From a virus, in IMG/VR virus record IMGVR_UViG_3300045988_001250, positions 1 through 5,548 of that record: 5,548 nucleotides of DNA, one strand, 5' to 3'. The notes under the pieces are model-generated. The model ran no database searches and was not told where the DNA came from. It saw only the letters and a list, made by a program, of their open reading frames with translations. Positions 1 through 5,548 of this stretch are shown here, piece after piece. Position 1 is the first letter of the stretch; the number at the start of each line of letters is the position of its first letter. The translations under genes were made by a program, and so were the position numbers.

Positions 1-55
1 CGCTGGCGGACTATCTGGGACTGCCTACCAAAGTTAAAGGCATCAGCGTAAGCGC
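1..55. repeat. Terminal redundancy (copy 1), identical to 5494..5548; signature of a circular contig rather than a biological repeat
   Basis: Read directly: cgctggcggactatctgggactgcctaccaaagttaaaggcatcagcgtaagcgc occurs at both window ends, 55/55 identical. Confidence 0.95.
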
Positions 56-1223
56 TCTGCCCGGTCGAGCATACGGCCTAATCTACAACGAGTGGTTTCG
101 AAACCAGAACGTCACGCAGCCGACGCTCGTAGAAGTGACGGATGCGACCACGACCGGCAAAAACGACGGCAGCACTACCAACGACAGCGCTATCACGTTG
201 GCAAAACCTCTCAAAGCAGCGAAAGTGTTTGACTACTACACCGGAGCTTTGCCGGAGCCTCAGAAAGGCGAGCCAATAACGATTCCGCTGGGAGACACCG
301 CAAAAGTCTACGCATATGAACAAAACGGAGCTAAGTTCGAAGGAAGTCAAGACCTAACAAACTTCCACATATACAACGAAGACAATAAAACAGAAGGACT
401 CACAGCGTACCCCGGAAATGTCGCCCTTGGAATGCTTACGTTAAAAACAGACCTCAGCAGCGTCACCTCAGCTACCATCAACCAGTTACGTCAGGCATTC
501 CAGATTCAGAAACTGCTCGAAAAAGATGCACGAGGCGGCACGAGATACCGCGAGGTACTGCGCGAACACTTCGGAGTTATCTCTCCTGACTCTCGTATGC
601 AGATTCCGGAATATCTGGGCGGCTACAGACTGCCTATCAACGTGTCTCAGGTTATCCAAACCTCTTCGACCGACAGCACGAGTCCGCTGGGCAACACAGC
701 GGCGCTAAGTGTTACCACGATGAACAAACCTATGTTTACCAAGTCCTTTACGGAACACGGATTTATCATGGGACTCGCAGTAGTACGAACCGACCAAACC
801 TATCAGCAGGGTATCGAGCGCATGTGGAGCCGCAAAGGCCGGTATGATTACTACTGGCCGGTACTGGCAAACATCGGCGAACAAGCCATTCTCAACAAAG
901 AAATCTATGCACAGGGCAACAAGGCAGATGAAGAAGCGTTCGGCTACCAAGAGGCATGGGCCGACTACAGGTACAAGCCCAGCAAAGTAACTGGGCTTTT
1001 CCGAAGCAACGCAGCACAGAGCCTCGATGCATGGCACTATGCACAAGATTACGACGCACTACCCACGCTGAGTACGGCATGGATGGAGCAGACCGACAGA
1101 GAAATGAAGAGAACACTGGCGGTGCAGAATCAGCCAGACTTCATCGCGGACTTCTACTTTATGAACAAAACAACCAGATGCATGCCGGTGTACAGCATTC
1201 CCGGCCTCATCGACCATCACTAA
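1..1223 (+). CDS. VP1: Major capsid protein VP1, C-terminal part (first complete codon at nt 3); joined product 5124..5493+1..1223 = 1593 nt, 530 aa
   Basis: The frame is open from the window edge (LADYLGLPTKVKGISVSALPGRAYGLIYNEWFRNQNV...) to TAA 1221-1223. It is in the same phase as 5124.. because 5493 is divisible by 3. The track's GTG-135 start is an artefact of the window cut. The size and the YNxIxNEWFRDQN-type block fit Microviridae F/VP1. Confidence 0.93.
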   Translation, partial: LADYLGLPTKVKGISVSALPGRAYGLIYNEWFRNQNVTQPTLVEVTDATTTGKNDGSTTNDSAITLAKPLKAAKVFDYYTGALPEPQKGEPITIPLGDTAKVYAYEQNGAKFEGSQDLTNFHIYNEDNKTEGLTAYPGNVALGMLTLKTDLSSVTSATINQLRQAFQIQKLLEKDARGGTRYREVLREHFGVISPDSRMQIPEYLGGYRLPINVSQVIQTSSTDSTSPLGNTAALSVTTMNKPMFTKSFTEHGFIMGLAVVRTDQTYQQGIERMWSRKGRYDYYWPVLANIGEQAILNKEIYAQGNKADEEAFGYQEAWADYRYKPSKVTGLFRSNAAQSLDAWHYAQDYDALPTLSTAWMEQTDREMKRTLAVQNQPDFIADFYFMNKTTRCMPVYSIPGLIDHH

Positions 1224-1234
1224 AGAAAGGAGAC

Positions 1235-1262
1235 AGCCGGGGACAAAACCCCGGCTATTTTT
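1235..1262 (+). terminator. Hairpin plus T-tract just after VP1 (intrinsic terminator/attenuator or mRNA-stabilising hairpin)
   Basis: AGCCGGGG (1235-1242) pairs with CCCCGGCT (1249-1256), giving a perfect 8-bp GC-rich stem. The loop is 6 nt (ACAAAA) and is followed by ATTTTT (1257-1262). Confidence 0.6.
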
Positions 1263-1266
1263 GAAA

Positions 1267-2121
1267 ATGGCAATACCAGCCTTTTTAGGAGCCTTATCAA
1301 CAGGCGCGAAAATACTGGGCGGAGTAAGCGGCCTCATAAACGCCGGAACAGGCATCTTCAACGCGCTCAAAGGCACATCAGGCAGCGGCAGCACCTCAGC
1401 TGACAGTTACAACCAAGCGCACGGCGAAGGCGGCTCTAGCATGACCAGCGAAAGCGGAGTAAACATGGACCAGACAAAAGAGCTAGCCAAATACTTTCTG
1501 GGGCAGAGCCAACAAGCGCAGGGCATGCAGAGCATGCAAAACAACAAGAACTCTCTCATGGCACTGGGATTAAACACTCTGGGAGCTATCCAGCAGGGCG
1601 TTTACAATCGTATCCAGCAAGACGCAGCAATGTCCTACAACTCCGCAGAGGCAGCAGCTAACAGAGCATGGCAGGAGCGTATGAGTAACACAAGCTATCA
1701 GAGGGCAATGGCCGACATGAAAAAAGCGGGGCTTAATCCTATACTGGCCTACGCACAAGGCGGCGCAAGCACTCCGACAGGCGCACACGGAACAATCGGG
1801 CAAAGCAGCATAAGCGCACCAAGCGTTGGAACGCAGGCAGCAAGTATGCCGACAATCTCCGGCACAACCGCAAACTACTCGAAAACCAAAGCGGAAAGTT
1901 GGAACTGGACAGACTCAAGCGGAGAAATGCACAGTAGCGGTTACAACAGCTATCAGACGGACTTTCCAGACCTAACCGGATGGCTCAACCAAAACAACAA
2001 CAGCGGCAAAAAAGCCGGAAGCAACACGGTGGACGCGCTAAGCGGAGCTGACCACAAAGCAAAAAGCGGCAAAGTGCCAAATCTTAATCCGATGAACAAA
2101 TATATTAACGGAGGTAAATAA
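1267..2121 (+). CDS. VP2: VP2 minor capsid / DNA pilot protein (phiX174 H analogue), 284 aa
   Basis: The ORF runs to TAA 2119-2121. It has a Gly/Ala-rich hydrophobic N-terminus and the conserved microvirus VP2 block AWQERMSNTSYQRAMADMKKAGLNPILAY. Its position directly after VP1 fits. ATG 1267 is preferred over the track's TTG 1261. Confidence 0.88.
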   Translation: MAIPAFLGALSTGAKILGGVSGLINAGTGIFNALKGTSGSGSTSADSYNQAHGEGGSSMTSESGVNMDQTKELAKYFLGQSQQAQGMQSMQNNKNSLMALGLNTLGAIQQGVYNRIQQDAAMSYNSAEAAANRAWQERMSNTSYQRAMADMKKAGLNPILAYAQGGASTPTGAHGTIGQSSISAPSVGTQAASMPTISGTTANYSKTKAESWNWTDSSGEMHSSGYNSYQTDFPDLTGWLNQNNNSGKKAGSNTVDALSGADHKAKSGKVPNLNPMNKYINGGK

Positions 2122-3144
2122 ATGAGCTGCGCAAGACCACTCATCAGAATATACAATCCAAATGACCACAACATAACAGGGTCAATCATGACTCTGGAAA
2201 CATACCGCGAAAGAGCACACAATCCAACAGCAACGTATGAGAGCCTCGCATACCGCACAGACGTGATGCTACTGCCATGTGGCAAATGTCTCGGGTGCAG
2301 ACTCAGACAGCGGCAAGACTGGGAGACAAGAATGTTGATGGAGTCAAAAACACTGACGCCAGTATGGTTTTTGACGCTAACATGGAATCAAGAGTATGTG
2401 CCAGGAATGGCAAGAGAAACAGGCGAAATCATAAGAGGTGCAGTGCATCAGTGGACGACCGGAGACGCACCGGAAGTGGTGCAAATTCTCCTACAAGAGG
2501 ACATGGTACGCTTTAACAAGAGGCTGAGGAAAAAACAAGAAACGTCCAATAAATGGGGCTTAGACCTGAGATATTTTTACTGTGGCGAATACGGCGAAAA
2601 CACAGGAAGACCGCATCATCACGGCATTTATTATGGTTTGGAGATACCAGACCTCAAGAAAAAAAGGGGTGATAATCCGTACTTCGAAAGCGAAGAGATA
2701 AACAAGATATGGGGCATGGGCAACGTCATCATCGCAGAAGCATCGCCGGAAACGATGGCTTATGTAGCAGGATATGTAACCAAAAAGACATACGGAAACG
2801 ACAGCAAAAGGTATAGGGAGTTAGGTTTAACACCGCCGTACTGTTGCATGTCAAGAAATCCGGGTCTAGGCTATGACTACTACACGAGCCATAAAGAGCA
2901 GATGTACGCAGATGATGGGCTATACTTTAACGGTAAAAAAAGGCCGATACCGAGGTACTTTGATAAAAAATACGAAGAAGAAAACCCGAAAAGCCTATGG
3001 AGCATAAAAGAAAAACGACATTCGAGCGCAATCAACGCCTTAAAACTCAAAATGGCCAATACAGGATTGACCATAGAGCAGGAAGCAAAAGTAGAGGAAG
3101 AGACAAAGAAACAGAGATTTAGAAAAGCCAGAGGGCTATTATAG
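2122..3144 (+). CDS. VP4: VP4 replication initiation protein (HUH rolling-circle endonuclease, phiX174 A analogue), 340 aa
   Basis: An SD GGAGGT lies at 2110-2115, and the ATG abuts the VP2 stop. A Cys cluster LPCGKCLGCRLRQRQDW is present. RCR motif 1 is FLTLTW. Motif 2 (HUH) is RPHHHGIYYG, with cat cat cac at 2614-2622. Motif 3 has two tyrosines, AYVAGYVTKK (tat at 2761 and 2773), the YxxxY arrangement of phiX174 gpA. Confidence 0.95.
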   Translation: MSCARPLIRIYNPNDHNITGSIMTLETYRERAHNPTATYESLAYRTDVMLLPCGKCLGCRLRQRQDWETRMLMESKTLTPVWFLTLTWNQEYVPGMARETGEIIRGAVHQWTTGDAPEVVQILLQEDMVRFNKRLRKKQETSNKWGLDLRYFYCGEYGENTGRPHHHGIYYGLEIPDLKKKRGDNPYFESEEINKIWGMGNVIIAEASPETMAYVAGYVTKKTYGNDSKRYRELGLTPPYCCMSRNPGLGYDYYTSHKEQMYADDGLYFNGKKRPIPRYFDKKYEEENPKSLWSIKEKRHSSAINALKLKMANTGLTIEQEAKVEEETKKQRFRKARGLL

Positions 3145-3148
3145 TGTC

Positions 3149-3197
3149 AGTGGGCCTAATCCTATCAAGAAGAGGATTAGGCCCACTATTTATTTTC
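3149..3197 (+). terminator. Strong rho-independent terminator after Rep (15-bp perfect stem, 9-nt loop, T-rich tail)
   Basis: AGTGGGCCTAATCCT (3149-3163) pairs with AGGATTAGGCCCACT (3173-3187) as exact reverse complements. The loop is ATCAAGAAG (3164-3172). The tail is ATTTATTTTC (3188-3197). The structure starts 5 nt after the Rep stop codon. Confidence 0.8.
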
Positions 3198-3202
3198 GCT
3201 TA

Positions 3203-3212
3203 TTATATATAA
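3203..3212. repeat. AT-only perfect palindrome TTATATATAA, followed by AACTTGTTG (3211-3219), a 9-mer that recurs at 3320-3328
   Basis: Read directly. The palindrome is self-complementary and the 9-mer AACTTGTTG occurs twice in the intergenic region. Confidence 0.5.
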
Positions 3213-3246
3213 CTTGTTGTAGCCGTAGTAGTAGGGGCTGTGGAAA

Positions 3247-3432
3247 AGTTGAAAACCATAAATTTGAAACATAACATCGTAAAAAATAAGCATATTTCAT
3301 TGTTGAAAGATTTGTTGAAAACTTGTTGAAATGTTGAAACACTTTACCAGACTAAAATCTATTGCGTATAATGATGTTGAAAAGTATGTTGAAAATGTTG
3401 AAAAGCATGAGTTTTCCACAAAGTGTTGAAAA
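3247..3432 (+). repeat. Iteron-like array: 8 perfect direct copies of TGTTGAAA plus 1 degenerate copy, all in the same orientation, in two clusters
   Basis: Perfect TGTTGAAA occurs at 3301-3308, 3313-3320, 3324-3331 and 3332-3339 (cluster 1), and at 3375-3382, 3387-3394, 3396-3403 and 3424-3431 (cluster 2). A degenerate copy aGTTGAAA lies at 3247-3254. Start-to-start spacings are 12, 11 and 8 nt, then 12, 9 and 28 nt. The array lies in non-coding DNA between the Rep terminator and the main promoter. Confidence 0.9.
3343..3372 (+). promoter_or_regulatory. Candidate secondary promoter embedded between the two repeat clusters
   Basis: The -35-like TTTACC at 3343-3348 matches TTGACA at 4/6. An 18-nt spacer precedes a perfect -10 TATAAT at 3367-3372. 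No SD-led ORF lies immediately downstream. Confidence 0.35.
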
Positions 3433-3443
3433 TTCGAATTAAA

Positions 3444-3514
3444 GGCAGTCCGACGAGCGAAACCGGAAAGCCACGTCATGCTCTTCACACGGCGCACCGC
3501 GCCTACCGCATGAC
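3444..3514 (+). other. GC-rich structured block (at least two hairpins) between the repeat array and the main promoter; candidate ssDNA/RNA structural element
   Basis: Hairpin 1 pairs GGC/GCC (3444-3446 with 3470-3472) and TCCG/CGGA (3449-3452 with 3464-3467). Hairpin 2 pairs GTCATGC (3475-3481) with GCATGAC (3508-3514). It encloses GGCGC-ACC-GCGCC (3491-3503). The block contrasts sharply in composition with the AT-rich 3188-3440. Confidence 0.4.
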
Positions 3515-3554
3515 ATTCAAGGCAAAATTCTTCTAACTTTTTTCAAAAAAACTC

Positions 3555-3583
3555 TTGACAAAATAGAAAAAGCATGGTATAAT
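3555..3583 (+). promoter_or_regulatory. Near-consensus sigma70/sigmaA promoter with extended -10 and an A/T-rich upstream tract
   Basis: TTGACA lies at 3555-3560, followed by a 17-nt spacer and TATAAT at 3578-3583. The -10 is preceded by TGg (3575-3577), an extended -10 TGn. T6/A7 tracts at 3538-3550 resemble an UP element. This is the only perfect -35/-10 pair I found, and it sits at the head of the gene array. Confidence 0.8.
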
Positions 3584-3608
3584 GCAAACAGAAAAAGAGG
3601 TAAGAACC

Positions 3609-3794
3609 ATGAAAGCAAAATCTTTAGAGCATCTGAACATGAAAGCAATCGGCGAGCTGTACGACAAAGGAATCTACGAAACCAAAAAATACAGATACAT
3701 AGTTGACCGGGGCGACGGCGAGATATACCGCATCGAAAAGGACCTCCTGGGAACAACGGAAGCACTCGACCCGGAAAACTGGATAAAGCAGTAA
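3609..3794 (+). CDS. Hypothetical small protein (61 aa), first gene after the promoter
   Basis: An SD AAGAGGT lies at 3595-3601, 8 nt before ATG 3609. The track's ATG 3582 lies inside the -10 box and so cannot be on the transcript. The protein is hydrophilic: MKAKSLEHLNMKAIGELYDKGIYETKKYRYIVDRGDGEIYRIEKDLLGTTEALDPENWIKQ. I recognise no family. Confidence 0.6.
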   Translation: MKAKSLEHLNMKAIGELYDKGIYETKKYRYIVDRGDGEIYRIEKDLLGTTEALDPENWIKQ

Positions 3795-3809
3795 AGAGAG
3801 GTGACAAAA

Positions 3810-4007
3810 ATGAAAAAACCTAGATTTACAAGAGAAGAGCTGAACTGTCTGGAGGCTGGACACGAAGTAGAAAAAGGAAAATATACCTACCGAATCCACG
3901 GAAAGTATGTCAACGACTCATGGCACTGGGTACTTCAGAGGGCCGAAGAAACTGATGAAGACTGGGAAGACTGCGAAGTAATAAAAGAGAACAAAAATGT
4001 ACGATAG
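3810..4007 (+). CDS. Hypothetical small protein (65 aa) with an acidic, Trp-containing C-terminal half
   Basis: An SD AGAGGTG lies at 3797-3803, 6-8 nt before ATG 3810 (the track used GTG 3801). The sequence is MKKPRFTREELNCLEAGHEVEKGKYTYRIHGKYVNDSWHWVLQRAEETDEDWEDCEVIKENKNVR. I recognise no family. Confidence 0.55.
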   Translation: MKKPRFTREELNCLEAGHEVEKGKYTYRIHGKYVNDSWHWVLQRAEETDEDWEDCEVIKENKNVR

Positions 4008-4203
4008 AGCATATTATGAACTGTATAAAGGATACAGAGGGCCGGAAACACCGAACGAATGTGAATATTTTATCCGAAAGCTTTACAGACAGCTCAAAAA
4101 AGCATATACTGTAGAGGAAGCGAAAGCCATCATAGAAGAAATATACAAATACAAAAACCAAAAGGCAAAAATGGAGGTGAAACAGTGGCAATCATCAGTG
4201 TGA
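3997..4203 (+). CDS. Hypothetical small protein (68 aa), Tyr/Lys/Glu-rich, probably helical
   Basis: ATG 3997 overlaps the previous ORF by 11 nt. The only SD candidate is weak (AAGAGA, 3984-3989). The sequence is MYDRAYYELYKGYRGPETPNECEYFIRKLYRQLKKAYTVEEAKAIIEEIYKYKNQKAKMEVKQWQSSV. I recognise no family. Confidence 0.5.
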   Translation: MYDRAYYELYKGYRGPETPNECEYFIRKLYRQLKKAYTVEEAKAIIEEIYKYKNQKAKMEVKQWQSSV

Positions 4204-4328
4204 AGAGTGTCGAGAAAGCCATCAAAATCATGATGGACATTCTCGAAAAGCTGGACGAAATTTATCACGCGCTGCACGACAAGGAGGATGACAGCAATGG
4301 CAAAACGCACGAAAATGACCAGCAGTAA
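4185..4328 (+). CDS. Possible very small ORF (47 aa from GTG 4185, or 32 aa from ATG 4230) bridging the ORFan cassette and the J-like gene
   Basis: It is not in the track because it is under 60 aa. GGAGGTG at 4173-4179 lies 5-7 nt before GTG 4185, and the frame is open to TAA 4326-4328. The peptide is ...KSVEKAIKIMMDILEKLDEIYHALHDKEDDSNGKTHENDQQ. It overlaps both neighbours and has no homology support. Confidence 0.25.
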   Translation: MAIISVKSVEKAIKIMMDILEKLDEIYHALHDKEDDSNGKTHENDQQ

Positions 4329-4416
4329 AGACAAAAAGGTCTTTACTCAGACGGCAAAAAAGACCAAGGCCGTCAACGTCAGCCCGAAGAACATGAGAGG
4401 AGGCACTAGACTCTAA
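4297..4416 (+). CDS. Small basic DNA-binding/packaging protein (gokushovirus ORF8-like, phiX174 J analogue), 39 aa
   Basis: It is not in the ORF track because it is under 60 aa. An SD AAGGAGG lies at 4281-4287, 9 nt before ATG 4297; the in-frame ATG 4288 abuts the SD. The sequence is MAKRTKMTSSKDKKVFTQTAKKTKAVNVSPKNMRGGTRL, which is Lys/Arg-rich. It ends in the MRGGxRL/F motif typical of Chlamydia-phage ORF8-type proteins. Its stop overlaps the next start (TAATG, 4414-4418). Confidence 0.7.
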   Translation: MAKRTKMTSSKDKKVFTQTAKKTKAVNVSPKNMRGGTRL

Positions 4417-4658
4417 TGTTTAAGAAATACTACGCAATCTATGACAAGGTCGCCAAGAACTACAGCGGCCTCATCGAATTTCAGAACGACGCCGTCGCAA
4501 GCCGGCTCTTCGAAAACCAGCAGAAGAACAAAGACAGCTTTATCAGCATCAAGCCGGAAGATTTTCAGCTACACTACATCTGCACCATGGAGGACGAGAC
4601 CGGCGAAATCGTCGATAACGTCAACACGTGCGTATGTGAGGGCAAACCCAATGAGTAA
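4416..4658 (+). CDS. VP5: VP5-like non-structural protein (gokushovirus ORF5 family, phiX174 C-like role proposed), 80 aa
   Basis: GGAGG lies at 4399-4403. MFKKYYAIYDKVAKNYSGLIEFQNDAVASRLFENQ...KPEDFQLHYICTMEDETGEI follows the ORF5-family pattern: hydrophobic-IYD-K...y..pf...n.a.A.R.F, then PED(Y/F).L..iG.fDe.tGei. Its position immediately upstream of VP3 is canonical. Confidence 0.75.
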   Translation: MFKKYYAIYDKVAKNYSGLIEFQNDAVASRLFENQQKNKDSFISIKPEDFQLHYICTMEDETGEIVDNVNTCVCEGKPNE

Positions 4659-5127
4659 GTTTCGGAGCGCATACAGCGAACAGGTAAGGCATACGAGCCT
4701 GACCGGCAACGGCCACGAGCCTGAGTATGAGTACAAGGTAACGGACGAAGGCCGGGAGCTGGTAAAAACCGGCGAAACAGACGTCTATGCACTCATCCAG
4801 AGCCGTCTGGATGAAACCAAAATCGAAAACATCATCAAGCGGGCAACATACGACCCGACTGCACTGGGCAGTCAGGACTGGCAGACCAGCGAAACGATGA
4901 CCGATATTTCGGACGCACCAACAAACTACCACGAGTGGTATGGGCGTATCAAAGACGCGGAAGCGGAGTTTGACAAGCTGCCCATCGAAGTCAAAAACAA
5001 GTGGGACAACGATGTAGAAAAATACATCATGGCCTACGGAACCCAAGAGTGGGCAGACAAAATGGGCATAGCAAAACAGAAGGCCGAAGCAGAAAAGCCG
5101 GCTGAAAAAAGTGAGGTGAAAGAATGA
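4651..5127 (+). CDS. VP3: VP3 internal scaffolding protein, 158 aa
   Basis: ATG 4651 overlaps the VP5-like stop by 8 nt (ATGAGTAA). GAGGG lies at 4638-4642. The N-terminus is MSKFRSAYSEQ..., and a C-terminal block reads EFDKLPIEVKNKWDNDVEKYI, typical of the gokushovirus scaffold (Chlamy_scaf-type). It ends in a Lys/Glu/Ala-rich tail. Its stop overlaps the VP1 ATG. The track's start at 4441 is an out-of-context upstream extension. Confidence 0.8.
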   Translation: MSKFRSAYSEQVRHTSLTGNGHEPEYEYKVTDEGRELVKTGETDVYALIQSRLDETKIENIIKRATYDPTALGSQDWQTSETMTDISDAPTNYHEWYGRIKDAEAEFDKLPIEVKNKWDNDVEKYIMAYGTQEWADKMGIAKQKAEAEKPAEKSEVKE

Positions 5128-5548
5128 ACCGCAACAGTGAATACAACTTTGCACAGAATCCGCAAGTCGGAGTGAGCCGCAGCCGATTCCAGCGCAACAG
5201 CGACAACAAAACGACCTTCAACACGGGCGACCTCATCCCAATCTATCTGGATGAGGTGTTACCGGGTGATACGCACCAAATCGACGTTGCCTGTGTCATG
5301 CGAATGGCGACACCCATATTCCCGGTAATGGACAACGCCTATTGCGACTTCTACTTTTTCTTCGTGCCGAACCGCTTGCTCTGGAAGCACTGGAAGGAGT
5401 TTATGGGTGAAAACAAGGAAACCGCATGGACACCTAAGACGGAGTACAGTGTGCCGCAAGTAACGGCACCGAAAGACGGATGGGAAGAAGGTACGCTGGC
5501 GGACTATCTGGGACTGCCTACCAAAGTTAAAGGCATCAGCGTAAGCGC
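5124..5548 (+). CDS. VP1: Major capsid protein VP1 (phiX174 F homologue), N-terminal part; runs off the window end and continues at position 56 (equivalently 1..1223)
   Basis: ATG at 5124 overlaps the VP3 stop (ATGA). An SD GAGGTG lies at 5113-5118. There is no stop through 5548. Translation is MNRNSEYNFAQNPQVGVSRSRFQRNSDNKTTFNTGDLIPIYLDEVLPGDTHQIDVACVMRMATPIFPVMDNAYCDFYFFFVPNRLLWKHWKEFMGEN. This carries the conserved gokushovirus VP1 N-terminal blocks (KTTFxxGxLIPI, EVLPGDT, ATPIFPxMDN, FFVPNRLxW). It is missing from the ORF track because it has no in-window stop. Confidence 0.93.
   Translation, partial: MNRNSEYNFAQNPQVGVSRSRFQRNSDNKTTFNTGDLIPIYLDEVLPGDTHQIDVACVMRMATPIFPVMDNAYCDFYFFFVPNRLLWKHWKEFMGENKETAWTPKTEYSVPQVTAPKDGWEEGTLADYLGLPTKVKGISVS
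5494..5548. repeat. Terminal redundancy (copy 2), identical to 1..55
   Basis: Same 55-mer as at 1..55. Confidence 0.95.

Follow-up and report, generated by a model that had tools for sequence, protein, structure and literature searches.

A putative oriC-type module for host DnaA in the non-coding stretch downstream of the rep gene of a gut gokushovirus

The window analysed here, the whole 5,548-nt stretch of IMG/VR record IMGVR_UViG_3300045988_001250 (positions 1 to 5,548), is a circular gokushovirus (Microviridae) genome of ~5,493 nt with a terminal redundancy of 55 nt (1-55 = 5494-5548). Every gene of this genome lies on the + strand: VP1, which crosses the circle junction (5124 through to 1223), VP2 (1261-2121), VP4 (2122-3144), which encodes the HUH replication protein Rep (Pfam REP_ORF2-G2P, 1.1e-14), and, downstream of VP4, VP5 and the Chp2-type scaffold gene VP3. 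The nearest records (83-94% identity) belong to gokushoviruses of the gut, sampled from faeces of humans, dogs and pigs; the strong GGAGG ribosome-binding sites and the perfect TTGACA-17-TATAAT promoter found in the window are consistent with a Firmicutes host. Between VP4 and the next small open reading frame (ORF) lies a 464-nt non-coding stretch that contains an inverted pair of 9-mers and a set of repeat units resembling the sites (boxes) bound by the bacterial replication initiator DnaA. An earlier description, made from the letters alone and referred to here as the sequence-only reading, gave special weight to the 9-mer pair and considered that the phage might read a host master regulator through it. 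We propose that positions 3186-3432 are probably an oriC-type module at which the host DnaA opens the duplex replicative form (RF) of this gut gokushovirus. The anatomy of the module, its orientation, spacing and conservation, and the instability of its duplex are all directly observed.

The combination of DnaA boxes with a basal unwinding system (BUS) is well known in bacterial chromosomes. In a BUS, a DnaA box with at most two mismatches to TTATCCACA lies within 16 bp of the DnaA-trios, which have the consensus 3′-GAT-5′ and number at least three (Pelliciari et al., PMC8287927). The phage module was also inspected for a co-oriented second box (at most four mismatches), for trios with a central A on the correct strand, for a short GC-rich spacer and for an AT element. 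Its left end starts with the AT-rich tract CTATTTATTTTCGCTTATTATATATAACTTGTT (3186-3218), which occupies the position of the DNA unwinding element (DUE), is present in 37 of 37 related modules and, by nearest-neighbour energy, contains the least stable duplex of the genome (3186-3215 with a 30-bp window, 3199-3218 with a 20-bp window). Between the DUE and the trios the + strand reads AACTTGTTG (3211-3219), a motif that is nearly invariant in the main lineage and has a second copy inside the array (3320-3328); TAACTTGTTG and CTTGTTGTAG occur in 15 of 15 genomes with the module in direct orientation, and their reverse complements in 5-6 of the 6 with an inverted one. Next comes the DnaA-trio-like array TAG CCG TAG TAG TAG (3220-3234, + strand; 5′-TAG-3′ = 3′-GAT-5′), as read from the sequence; the three consecutive TAG (3226-3234) and the one at 3220 share their strand with TGTGGAAAA. 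TAG-NNG-TAG-TAG-TAG or a longer version of it is found in 35 of the 37 related modules. The 4-bp GC cluster GGGC (3235-3238), identical to that of the dnaA-dnaN spacer of Priestia megaterium, then separates the trios from the trio-proximal box TTTTCCACA (3239-3247, − strand; TGTGGAAAA on the + strand), which corresponds to the left 9-mer and takes the box#7 position, only 4 bp from the trios and with a single mismatch to TTATCCACA. The second tandem box (3247-3255, − strand; AGTTGAAAA on the + strand; box#6 position) is co-oriented and follows at 8 bp, a spacing like that of Bacillus subtilis and P. megaterium. A search for the corresponding BUS pattern, TAGTAGTAG-N4-TGTKGAWA, gave a single match in the window and none in 200 shuffles. 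In the relatives, the GC cluster is variable (GGGC, GGGG, GGAG, GCAA or AGTA) and the second box reads AGTTGAAAA, TGTTGATAA or TGTTGAATA; the canonical GG (CC in the box) is found at the trio-proximal unit in ~21 of 37 modules, as against ~10% of units overall.

How closely this left end follows a bacterial BUS becomes evident when the strands are written side by side. The BUS of B. subtilis is TTATCCACA-AATCCACA-GGCC-CTACTATTA... (Pelliciari et al., PMC8287927 supplement), so that its trio strand reads ...TAA TAG TAG / GGCC / TGTGGATT / TGTGGATAA; the phage + strand from 3186 to 3255 reads AT-rich / AACTTGTTG / TAG CCG TAG TAG TAG / GGGC / TGTGGAAA / AGTTGAAAA. Order and orientation of the parts agree between the two. 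The box pairs of B. subtilis (TTATCCACA|AATCCACA) and P. megaterium (TGTGGAAA|TGTGGATAA) are both spaced by 8 bp, and the GC cluster, GGCC in B. subtilis, is GCCC/GGGC in [C.] saccharolyticum. When 3195-3440 was compared by blastn with 7.3 Gb of plasmid records, the best match was the dnaA-dnaN intergenic spacer of a P. megaterium replicon, in which 15 identical bases, with TAGGGGCTGTGGAAA in common, are flanked by trios and a second box. Aligned, P. megaterium has TAG TAG TAG TAA TAG GGGC TGTGGAAA TGTGGATAA CC and the phage TAG CCG TAG TAG TAG GGGC TGTGGAAA AGTTGAAAA CC, each preceded by an AT-rich tract. Apart from P. megaterium, similarity to 3195-3440 in the plasmid collection was insignificant.

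To the right of the tandem pair the module continues with repeats of the same family. The left 9-mer directly abuts a unit AGTTGAAA (3247-3254), from which 46 nt lead to the first of two box clusters. Cluster 1 (3301-3340, boxes on the − strand) consists of four TGTTGAAA units (3301, 3313, 3324 and 3332; reverse complement TTTCAACA) spaced by 12, 11 and 8 bp, and is kept in relatives. Cluster 2 (3375-3404, − strand) has three TGTTGAAAA units (3375, 3387 and 3396; reverse complement TTTTCAACA) spaced by 12 and 9 bp, and is followed by the inverted terminal box TTTTCCACA (3412-3420, + strand), which is the right 9-mer, and by the last direct unit TGTTGAAAA (3424-3432, − strand), which forms a weak imperfect palindrome with 3412-3420. 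The sequence-only reading described the two 9-mers as an inverted pair that brackets the array. Indeed, TGTGGAAAA at 3239-3247 and TTTTCCACA at 3412-3420 form an exact 9-bp inverted repeat with arms 164 nt apart, both fit the relaxed consensus TTWTNCACA, which has no other match in the window, and the unit TGTTGAAAA is one base off TGTGGAAAA. Taken alone, the pair is marginal, being close to what chance provides (2 matches versus 0.39 expected; two or more in 11 of 200 shuffles). It brackets the array only loosely, as the unit at 3424-3432 lies beyond the right 9-mer, and its special status does not hold up, because the pair is not conserved across the 37 related modules: the left position is occupied by TGTGGAAA, AGTGGAAA or TGTTGAAA, and the inverted right unit, TTTCCACA, is absent from 25 of them and, in the remaining 12, always lies at the far end of cluster 2.

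Taken together, the boxes far exceed what chance would give. The array unit TGTTGAAA has eight exact copies (3301, 3313, 3324, 3332, 3375, 3387, 3396 and 3424), all on the + strand and with none elsewhere in the window; with one mismatch allowed, 18 matches are found versus 5.07 expected, a number reached by 0 of 200 shuffles. TTWTCMACA matches eight times (seven of them within 3239-3432) versus 0.14 expected, again in 0 of 200 shuffles. In 336 direct units from the 37 non-identical modules, the consensus is T-G-T-[T 299 / G 36]-G-A-A-A-[A 180], and the spacings are 8, 9, 11 and 12 bp. Boxes of this kind have counterparts in bacterial origins: the predicted BUS boxes of Clostridium acetobutylicum and R. 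thermocellum are TTATCAACA (PMC8287927), and TTTTCAACA-N3-TTTTCAACA corresponds to those predicted for the oriC of Ruminococcus albus 7 (PMC8287927 supplement). Judging from such predicted boxes, A at box position 6 commonly occurs among Clostridia. The suggestion that stronger and weaker DnaA-box-like sites are clustered in this region is borne out both by the BUS position of the left 9-mer and by a second microvirus lineage with TTATCCACA boxes, described below; on the same grounds, the phage would read a host master regulator, most likely DnaA. Other functions were considered for the array and discarded. A dif/XerCD-like site around 3358-3385 shows, by eye, similarity only in the XerC-like arm, and its spacer is not conserved in relatives. 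An internal promoter with the units as −35 hexamers (TTTACC-18-TATAAT, 3343-3372) is contradicted by close relatives that read TATAAC for TATAAT, and a coding region or RNA gene by the variable spacing of 8, 9, 11 or 12 bp, which breaks any frame, and by the lack of an Rfam match.

Conservation of the module extends well beyond close relatives. A blastn search with 3140-3610 recovered 56 phage records, in many of which the non-coding stretch is the sole part that can be aligned at the DNA level, and the module is present in 16 of 16 GenBank loci found by similarity, the only loci that were collected independently of a pattern. What these genomes share is an AT tract, (A)ACTTGTTG, TAG-NNG-TAG-TAG-TAG, a 4-nt spacer, two abutting units, a spacer, three to four units, a spacer of ~35 nt and again three to four units, and this is all that can be aligned as DNA between genomes with Rep proteins 31-47% identical. 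Its orientation to the genes is free, the module being inverted in 5 of the 16 GenBank relatives. One clade has it flipped in place 3′ of VP4, between alternating-GC tracts, and another, whose Rep identity is 31-34%, has it between VP2 and VP4; the inverted-module loci are L008/L137, L009/L138, L013/L139, L015/L140, L016/L141, L041, L042, L065, L312 and L314. Perfect alternating CG/CA hairpins (e.g., GCATGCGCGCGCGCGCGTTTCGCGCGCGCGCGCATGC) adjoin the module in many relatives (L003 1385-1430, L010 1125-1170, L027 3326-3369) and are absent from the window; they could be a complementary-strand origin or the driver of the inversions. On the coding strand, four-fold degenerate sites are very strongly biased towards A over T (skew 0.43-0.71 in the window genome and 22 relatives), unlike phiX174, whose + strand is T-rich. 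Because this skew remains that of the coding strand in both classes (0.43-0.69 direct, 0.51-0.71 inverted), nothing indicates that an inverted module goes along with a change of packaged strand.

This freedom of orientation bears directly on the proposal, made in the sequence-only reading, that a DnaA box on a single-stranded DNA (ssDNA) hairpin nucleates an ABC-type (DnaA-DnaB-DnaC) primosome for complementary-strand synthesis. Such single-strand initiation (ssi) signals carry the DnaA box in the stem of an ssDNA hairpin. The right 9-mer and the next unit do make a small palindrome (3409-3435), and in some relatives a unit and an inverted unit form TGTTGAAAAC-N5-7-GTTTTCCACA. However, the hairpin at 3409-3435, the only one that places a box in a stem, reaches just −4 kcal/mol, has a C/T mismatch inside the box and is equalled by 58 of 200 shuffles, and the inverted unit is the one missing from 25 of the 37 modules. 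Folded as ssDNA, the two 9-mers do not pair with each other on the + or on the − strand, and the 341 nt from 3190 to 3530 fold no better than shuffled sequence on either strand (z 0.00 and −0.09), so that 9-mer pairing and significant ssDNA structure over this region were both rejected. Besides lacking a stable box-bearing stem, the module occurs in both orientations, unlike a strand-specific signal: provided that the packaged strand is the coding strand, its orientation is not fixed relative to the packaged strand, since 5 of 16 GenBank relatives are inverted with unchanged skew. A strand-specific ssDNA signal is therefore unlikely, and an ssi function of the ABC type is given very little credence; the inversions favour a function in duplex DNA, and a duplex element fits.

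Orientation and divergence are equally relevant to the possibility that the units are iterons for the phage Rep (VP4), i.e., binding sites of a rolling-circle origin with a nick in or near AACTTGTTG. The array lies just downstream of rep, and rolling-circle replicons usually have iterons beside their nick sites. AACTTGTTG recurs inside the array at 3320, and its AACTTG presumably resembles the phiX174 origin, whose core we take to be CAACTTG. Iterons would be expected to vary together with the protein that binds them, but the units stay the same over Rep identities from 31 to 96% and remain TGTTGAAA even where Rep identity drops to 31-47%. Where Rep is only 28% identical, they turn into perfect host DnaA boxes. 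This occurs in L312/L314, a separate microvirus lineage (capsid Pfam Phage_F, 2e-114; Rep 28% identical to VP4) that has, directly 3′ of rep and on the coding strand, four perfect TTATCCACA boxes, CCACA-TTTCCACA-TTTCCACA, ATGC, (CTA)5 and an AT tract. The architecture is the same with the units replaced by consensus DnaA boxes, and we rank this as the strongest evidence on the nature of the array units. AACTTGTTG is not found in the L312 lineage, although trios and boxes are. In addition, the whole left end of the window module matches a bacterial BUS, and the A>T skew stays with the coding strand in the genomes with an inverted module; this last point counts against, without being decisive, a Rep origin that fixes the packaged strand. 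Since the units fail to follow the divergence of Rep and become host boxes in L312, we regard Rep iterons as quite improbable.

A different host protein could in principle bind the array. The sequence-only reading pointed out that TGTTGAA is one base off the Spo0A box TGTCGAA, and Spo0A or another host regulator (e.g., an OmpR-type protein with TGTTxA direct repeats) would tie phage development to the state of the host. In the oriC of B. subtilis, 0A boxes and DnaA boxes overlap, and spacings of 11-12 bp are common in the phage array. Yet the 8- and 9-bp spacings are as common as those of 11 and 12 bp, the single mismatch sits on the conserved C, and TGNCGAA is absent from 3145-3608; its two matches in the window are both coding, versus 2.77 expected. 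Related modules contain 0-2 TGNCGAA each, and only one TGTCGAAAA exists among the 336 units of relatives. A regulator of this type would also leave the trios, the GC cluster, the DUE and the perfect DnaA boxes of L312 unexplained, and such binding is accordingly considered most unlikely.

DnaA itself might be bound for another purpose. The boxes could act as a sink or sensor that binds DnaA for titration or regulation, as datA does, with no productive unwinding, so that a multicopy RF sequesters the initiator and blocks host initiation or times phage development. A multicopy RF with ~12 boxes in every genome would suit this role, as would the dispensability of the clusters in KT264799 (L379, 3480-3590; 93.6% identical), in which the hairpin, the AT tract, the trios and two boxes are kept and both clusters are gone. 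The clusters were either lost in a natural deletion or collapsed during assembly, and the resulting pattern matches what is expected of a basal BUS with accessory clusters. Nevertheless, the best conserved elements are not the boxes but the AT tract and the TAG trios in strict BUS order, which a pure sink would not need, and neither would it need a DUE that is the least stable duplex of the genome. Pure DnaA titration is for this reason the weaker alternative, and we hold it to be unlikely.

In the proposed oriC-type mechanism, host DnaA would bind the roughly twelve box variants, i.e., the tandem pair at 3239-3255, the two TGTTGAAA(A) clusters and the inverted box. A DnaA-ATP oligomer would then extend from the tandem pair over GGGC onto the + strand TAG repeats (3220-3234), upon which the AT-rich tract (3186-3218) would melt. 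The resulting bubble could load the host helicase and primase, leading to Rep-independent (theta-type) replication of the RF or to priming; this is the simplest reading of the downstream use, which we infer together with DnaA binding and unwinding. Several points weigh against it. Most units have A where the DnaA of Escherichia coli requires C (TTWTNCACA), and their status as boxes is drawn from predicted clostridial origins rather than from measured affinities. The second trio is CCG or NNG instead of NAN, the invariant AACTTGTTG falls outside the BUS rules, and 9-mers spaced by 8 or 9 bp leave little room for domain IV to bind side by side. The match to P. megaterium, with E = 0.06, is weak when taken alone, and counts among IMG/VR relatives are biased, because the patterns used to find those genomes included trios or boxes from the outset. 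Moreover, replication without DnaA is known from phiX-type microviruses.

In textbooks, Microviridae exemplify rolling-circle replication driven by Rep and aided by host primosomes. If the proposed mechanism is true, abundant gut gokushoviruses would also recruit the chromosomal initiator, which bears on the amplification and maintenance of the RF in Firmicutes hosts and possibly on phage persistence. A broader and more tentative extension is that many gut gokushoviruses and other module-bearing phage contigs keep or replicate a double-stranded form as DnaA-dependent ‘mini-chromosomes’ from a flippable, host-matched oriC-like cassette. An ssDNA phage of lytic type would in that case gain a second, theta-type mode of replication coupled to the cell cycle, which could underlie a plasmid-like persistence in the gut. 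The box variant (TTTTCAACA versus TTATCCACA) could, in addition, mark the hosts of uncultured microviruses. In the literature searched, no paper was found in which DnaA boxes, DnaA-trios or iterons are connected with gokushoviruses or microviruses. As far as these searches tell, the conserved presence, free orientation and apparently host-matched box variants of the module are new for ssDNA microviruses.

A scan of viral contigs for TAGTAGTAGNNNNTGTGGAWA found the pattern in at least 71 microvirus genomes, L312 and L314 among them. An earlier pattern, CTTGTTGTAGNNGTAG, was abandoned as too unspecific, its matches in large phages being mostly due to chance. Larger IMG/VR contigs of 9.6-159 kb (L264/L302, L306, L297, L332 and L277) also contain textbook sites with TAG trios, a GC spacer and TGTGGATA-TGTGGATAA, together with 4-10 further DnaA-box-like 8-mers that are perfect or near-consensus; no dnaA or dnaN was seen beside these sites in the stretches fetched. 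BUS-type origins may be widespread in phages. On the host side, a search of genome contigs for oriC or prophage copies with TTGTTGTAGNNGTAGTAGTAG gave mostly low-complexity chance matches, and the sole gokushovirus among them, a free contig of 5.8 kb, had been binned with a Prevotella metagenome-assembled genome.

The non-coding stretch contains further elements on both sides of the module. Just 3′ of the VP4 stop, a hairpin at 3149-3187 (within 3140-3190; −17 kcal/mol, z = −7.4; loop CTATCAAG at 3162) is a candidate Rep nick hairpin or terminator. Its loop (CTATCAAGTA) and the upstream GGTGTCA are kept in relatives with three different, co-varying stem sequences, and it always lies on the coding strand, even where the DnaA module is inverted. 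Beyond the module, a conserved GC-rich hairpin at 3475-3513 (GTCATGC...GGCGCACCGCGCC...GCATGAC, z = −2.2) is followed by the perfect TTGACA-17-TATAAT promoter (3555-3583), which has an extended −10 TG and drives the small ORFs. An exact 11-nt direct repeat, CATGAAAGCAA, is found where the first small ORF starts, its copies (3608-3618 and 3638-3648) being 30 nt apart.

Among known systems, the phage module is most readily compared with the BUS of Firmicutes (B. subtilis incC and dnaA-dnaN spacers), with which it shares the order and strand of its parts, the 8-bp box spacing, the 4-bp GC cluster, the presence of at least three 5′-TAG-3′ trios and the adjoining least stable AT tract. It differs in residing on a 5.5-kb ssDNA phage genome rather than beside dnaA or dnaN, in having boxes that are mostly TTTTCAACA and not TTATCCACA, in the additional invariant AACTTGTTG, in accessory boxes that form dense, same-oriented arrays with spacings of 8-12 bp, and in its free orientation to the genes. 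In the oriC of E. coli, the high-affinity boxes R1 and R4 lie in opposite orientation around arrays of low-affinity sites. The phage boxes at 3239 and 3412 are likewise opposite, near-consensus and placed around weaker sites of the same family, whereas the weak phage sites all point one way, the right box is missing from most relatives and one unit lies outside it. The origins of pSC101, P1 and F join Rep iterons with DnaA boxes, and are not described as having trios in BUS arrangement. They resemble the phage in placing a cluster of host DnaA boxes in the origin of a mobile replicon, but no separate iteron family and no theta-type Rep are seen in the phage, whose Rep is an HUH rolling-circle enzyme. 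Bacillus phage phi29, with its 0A boxes for Spo0A, is a precedent for a phage that reads a host master regulator, and differs in that no 0A-box match is found here. Finally, ssi signals of the ABC type are alike in their use of DnaA on a small replicon, whereas the module of this gokushovirus has no stable box-presenting hairpin and is orientation-free.

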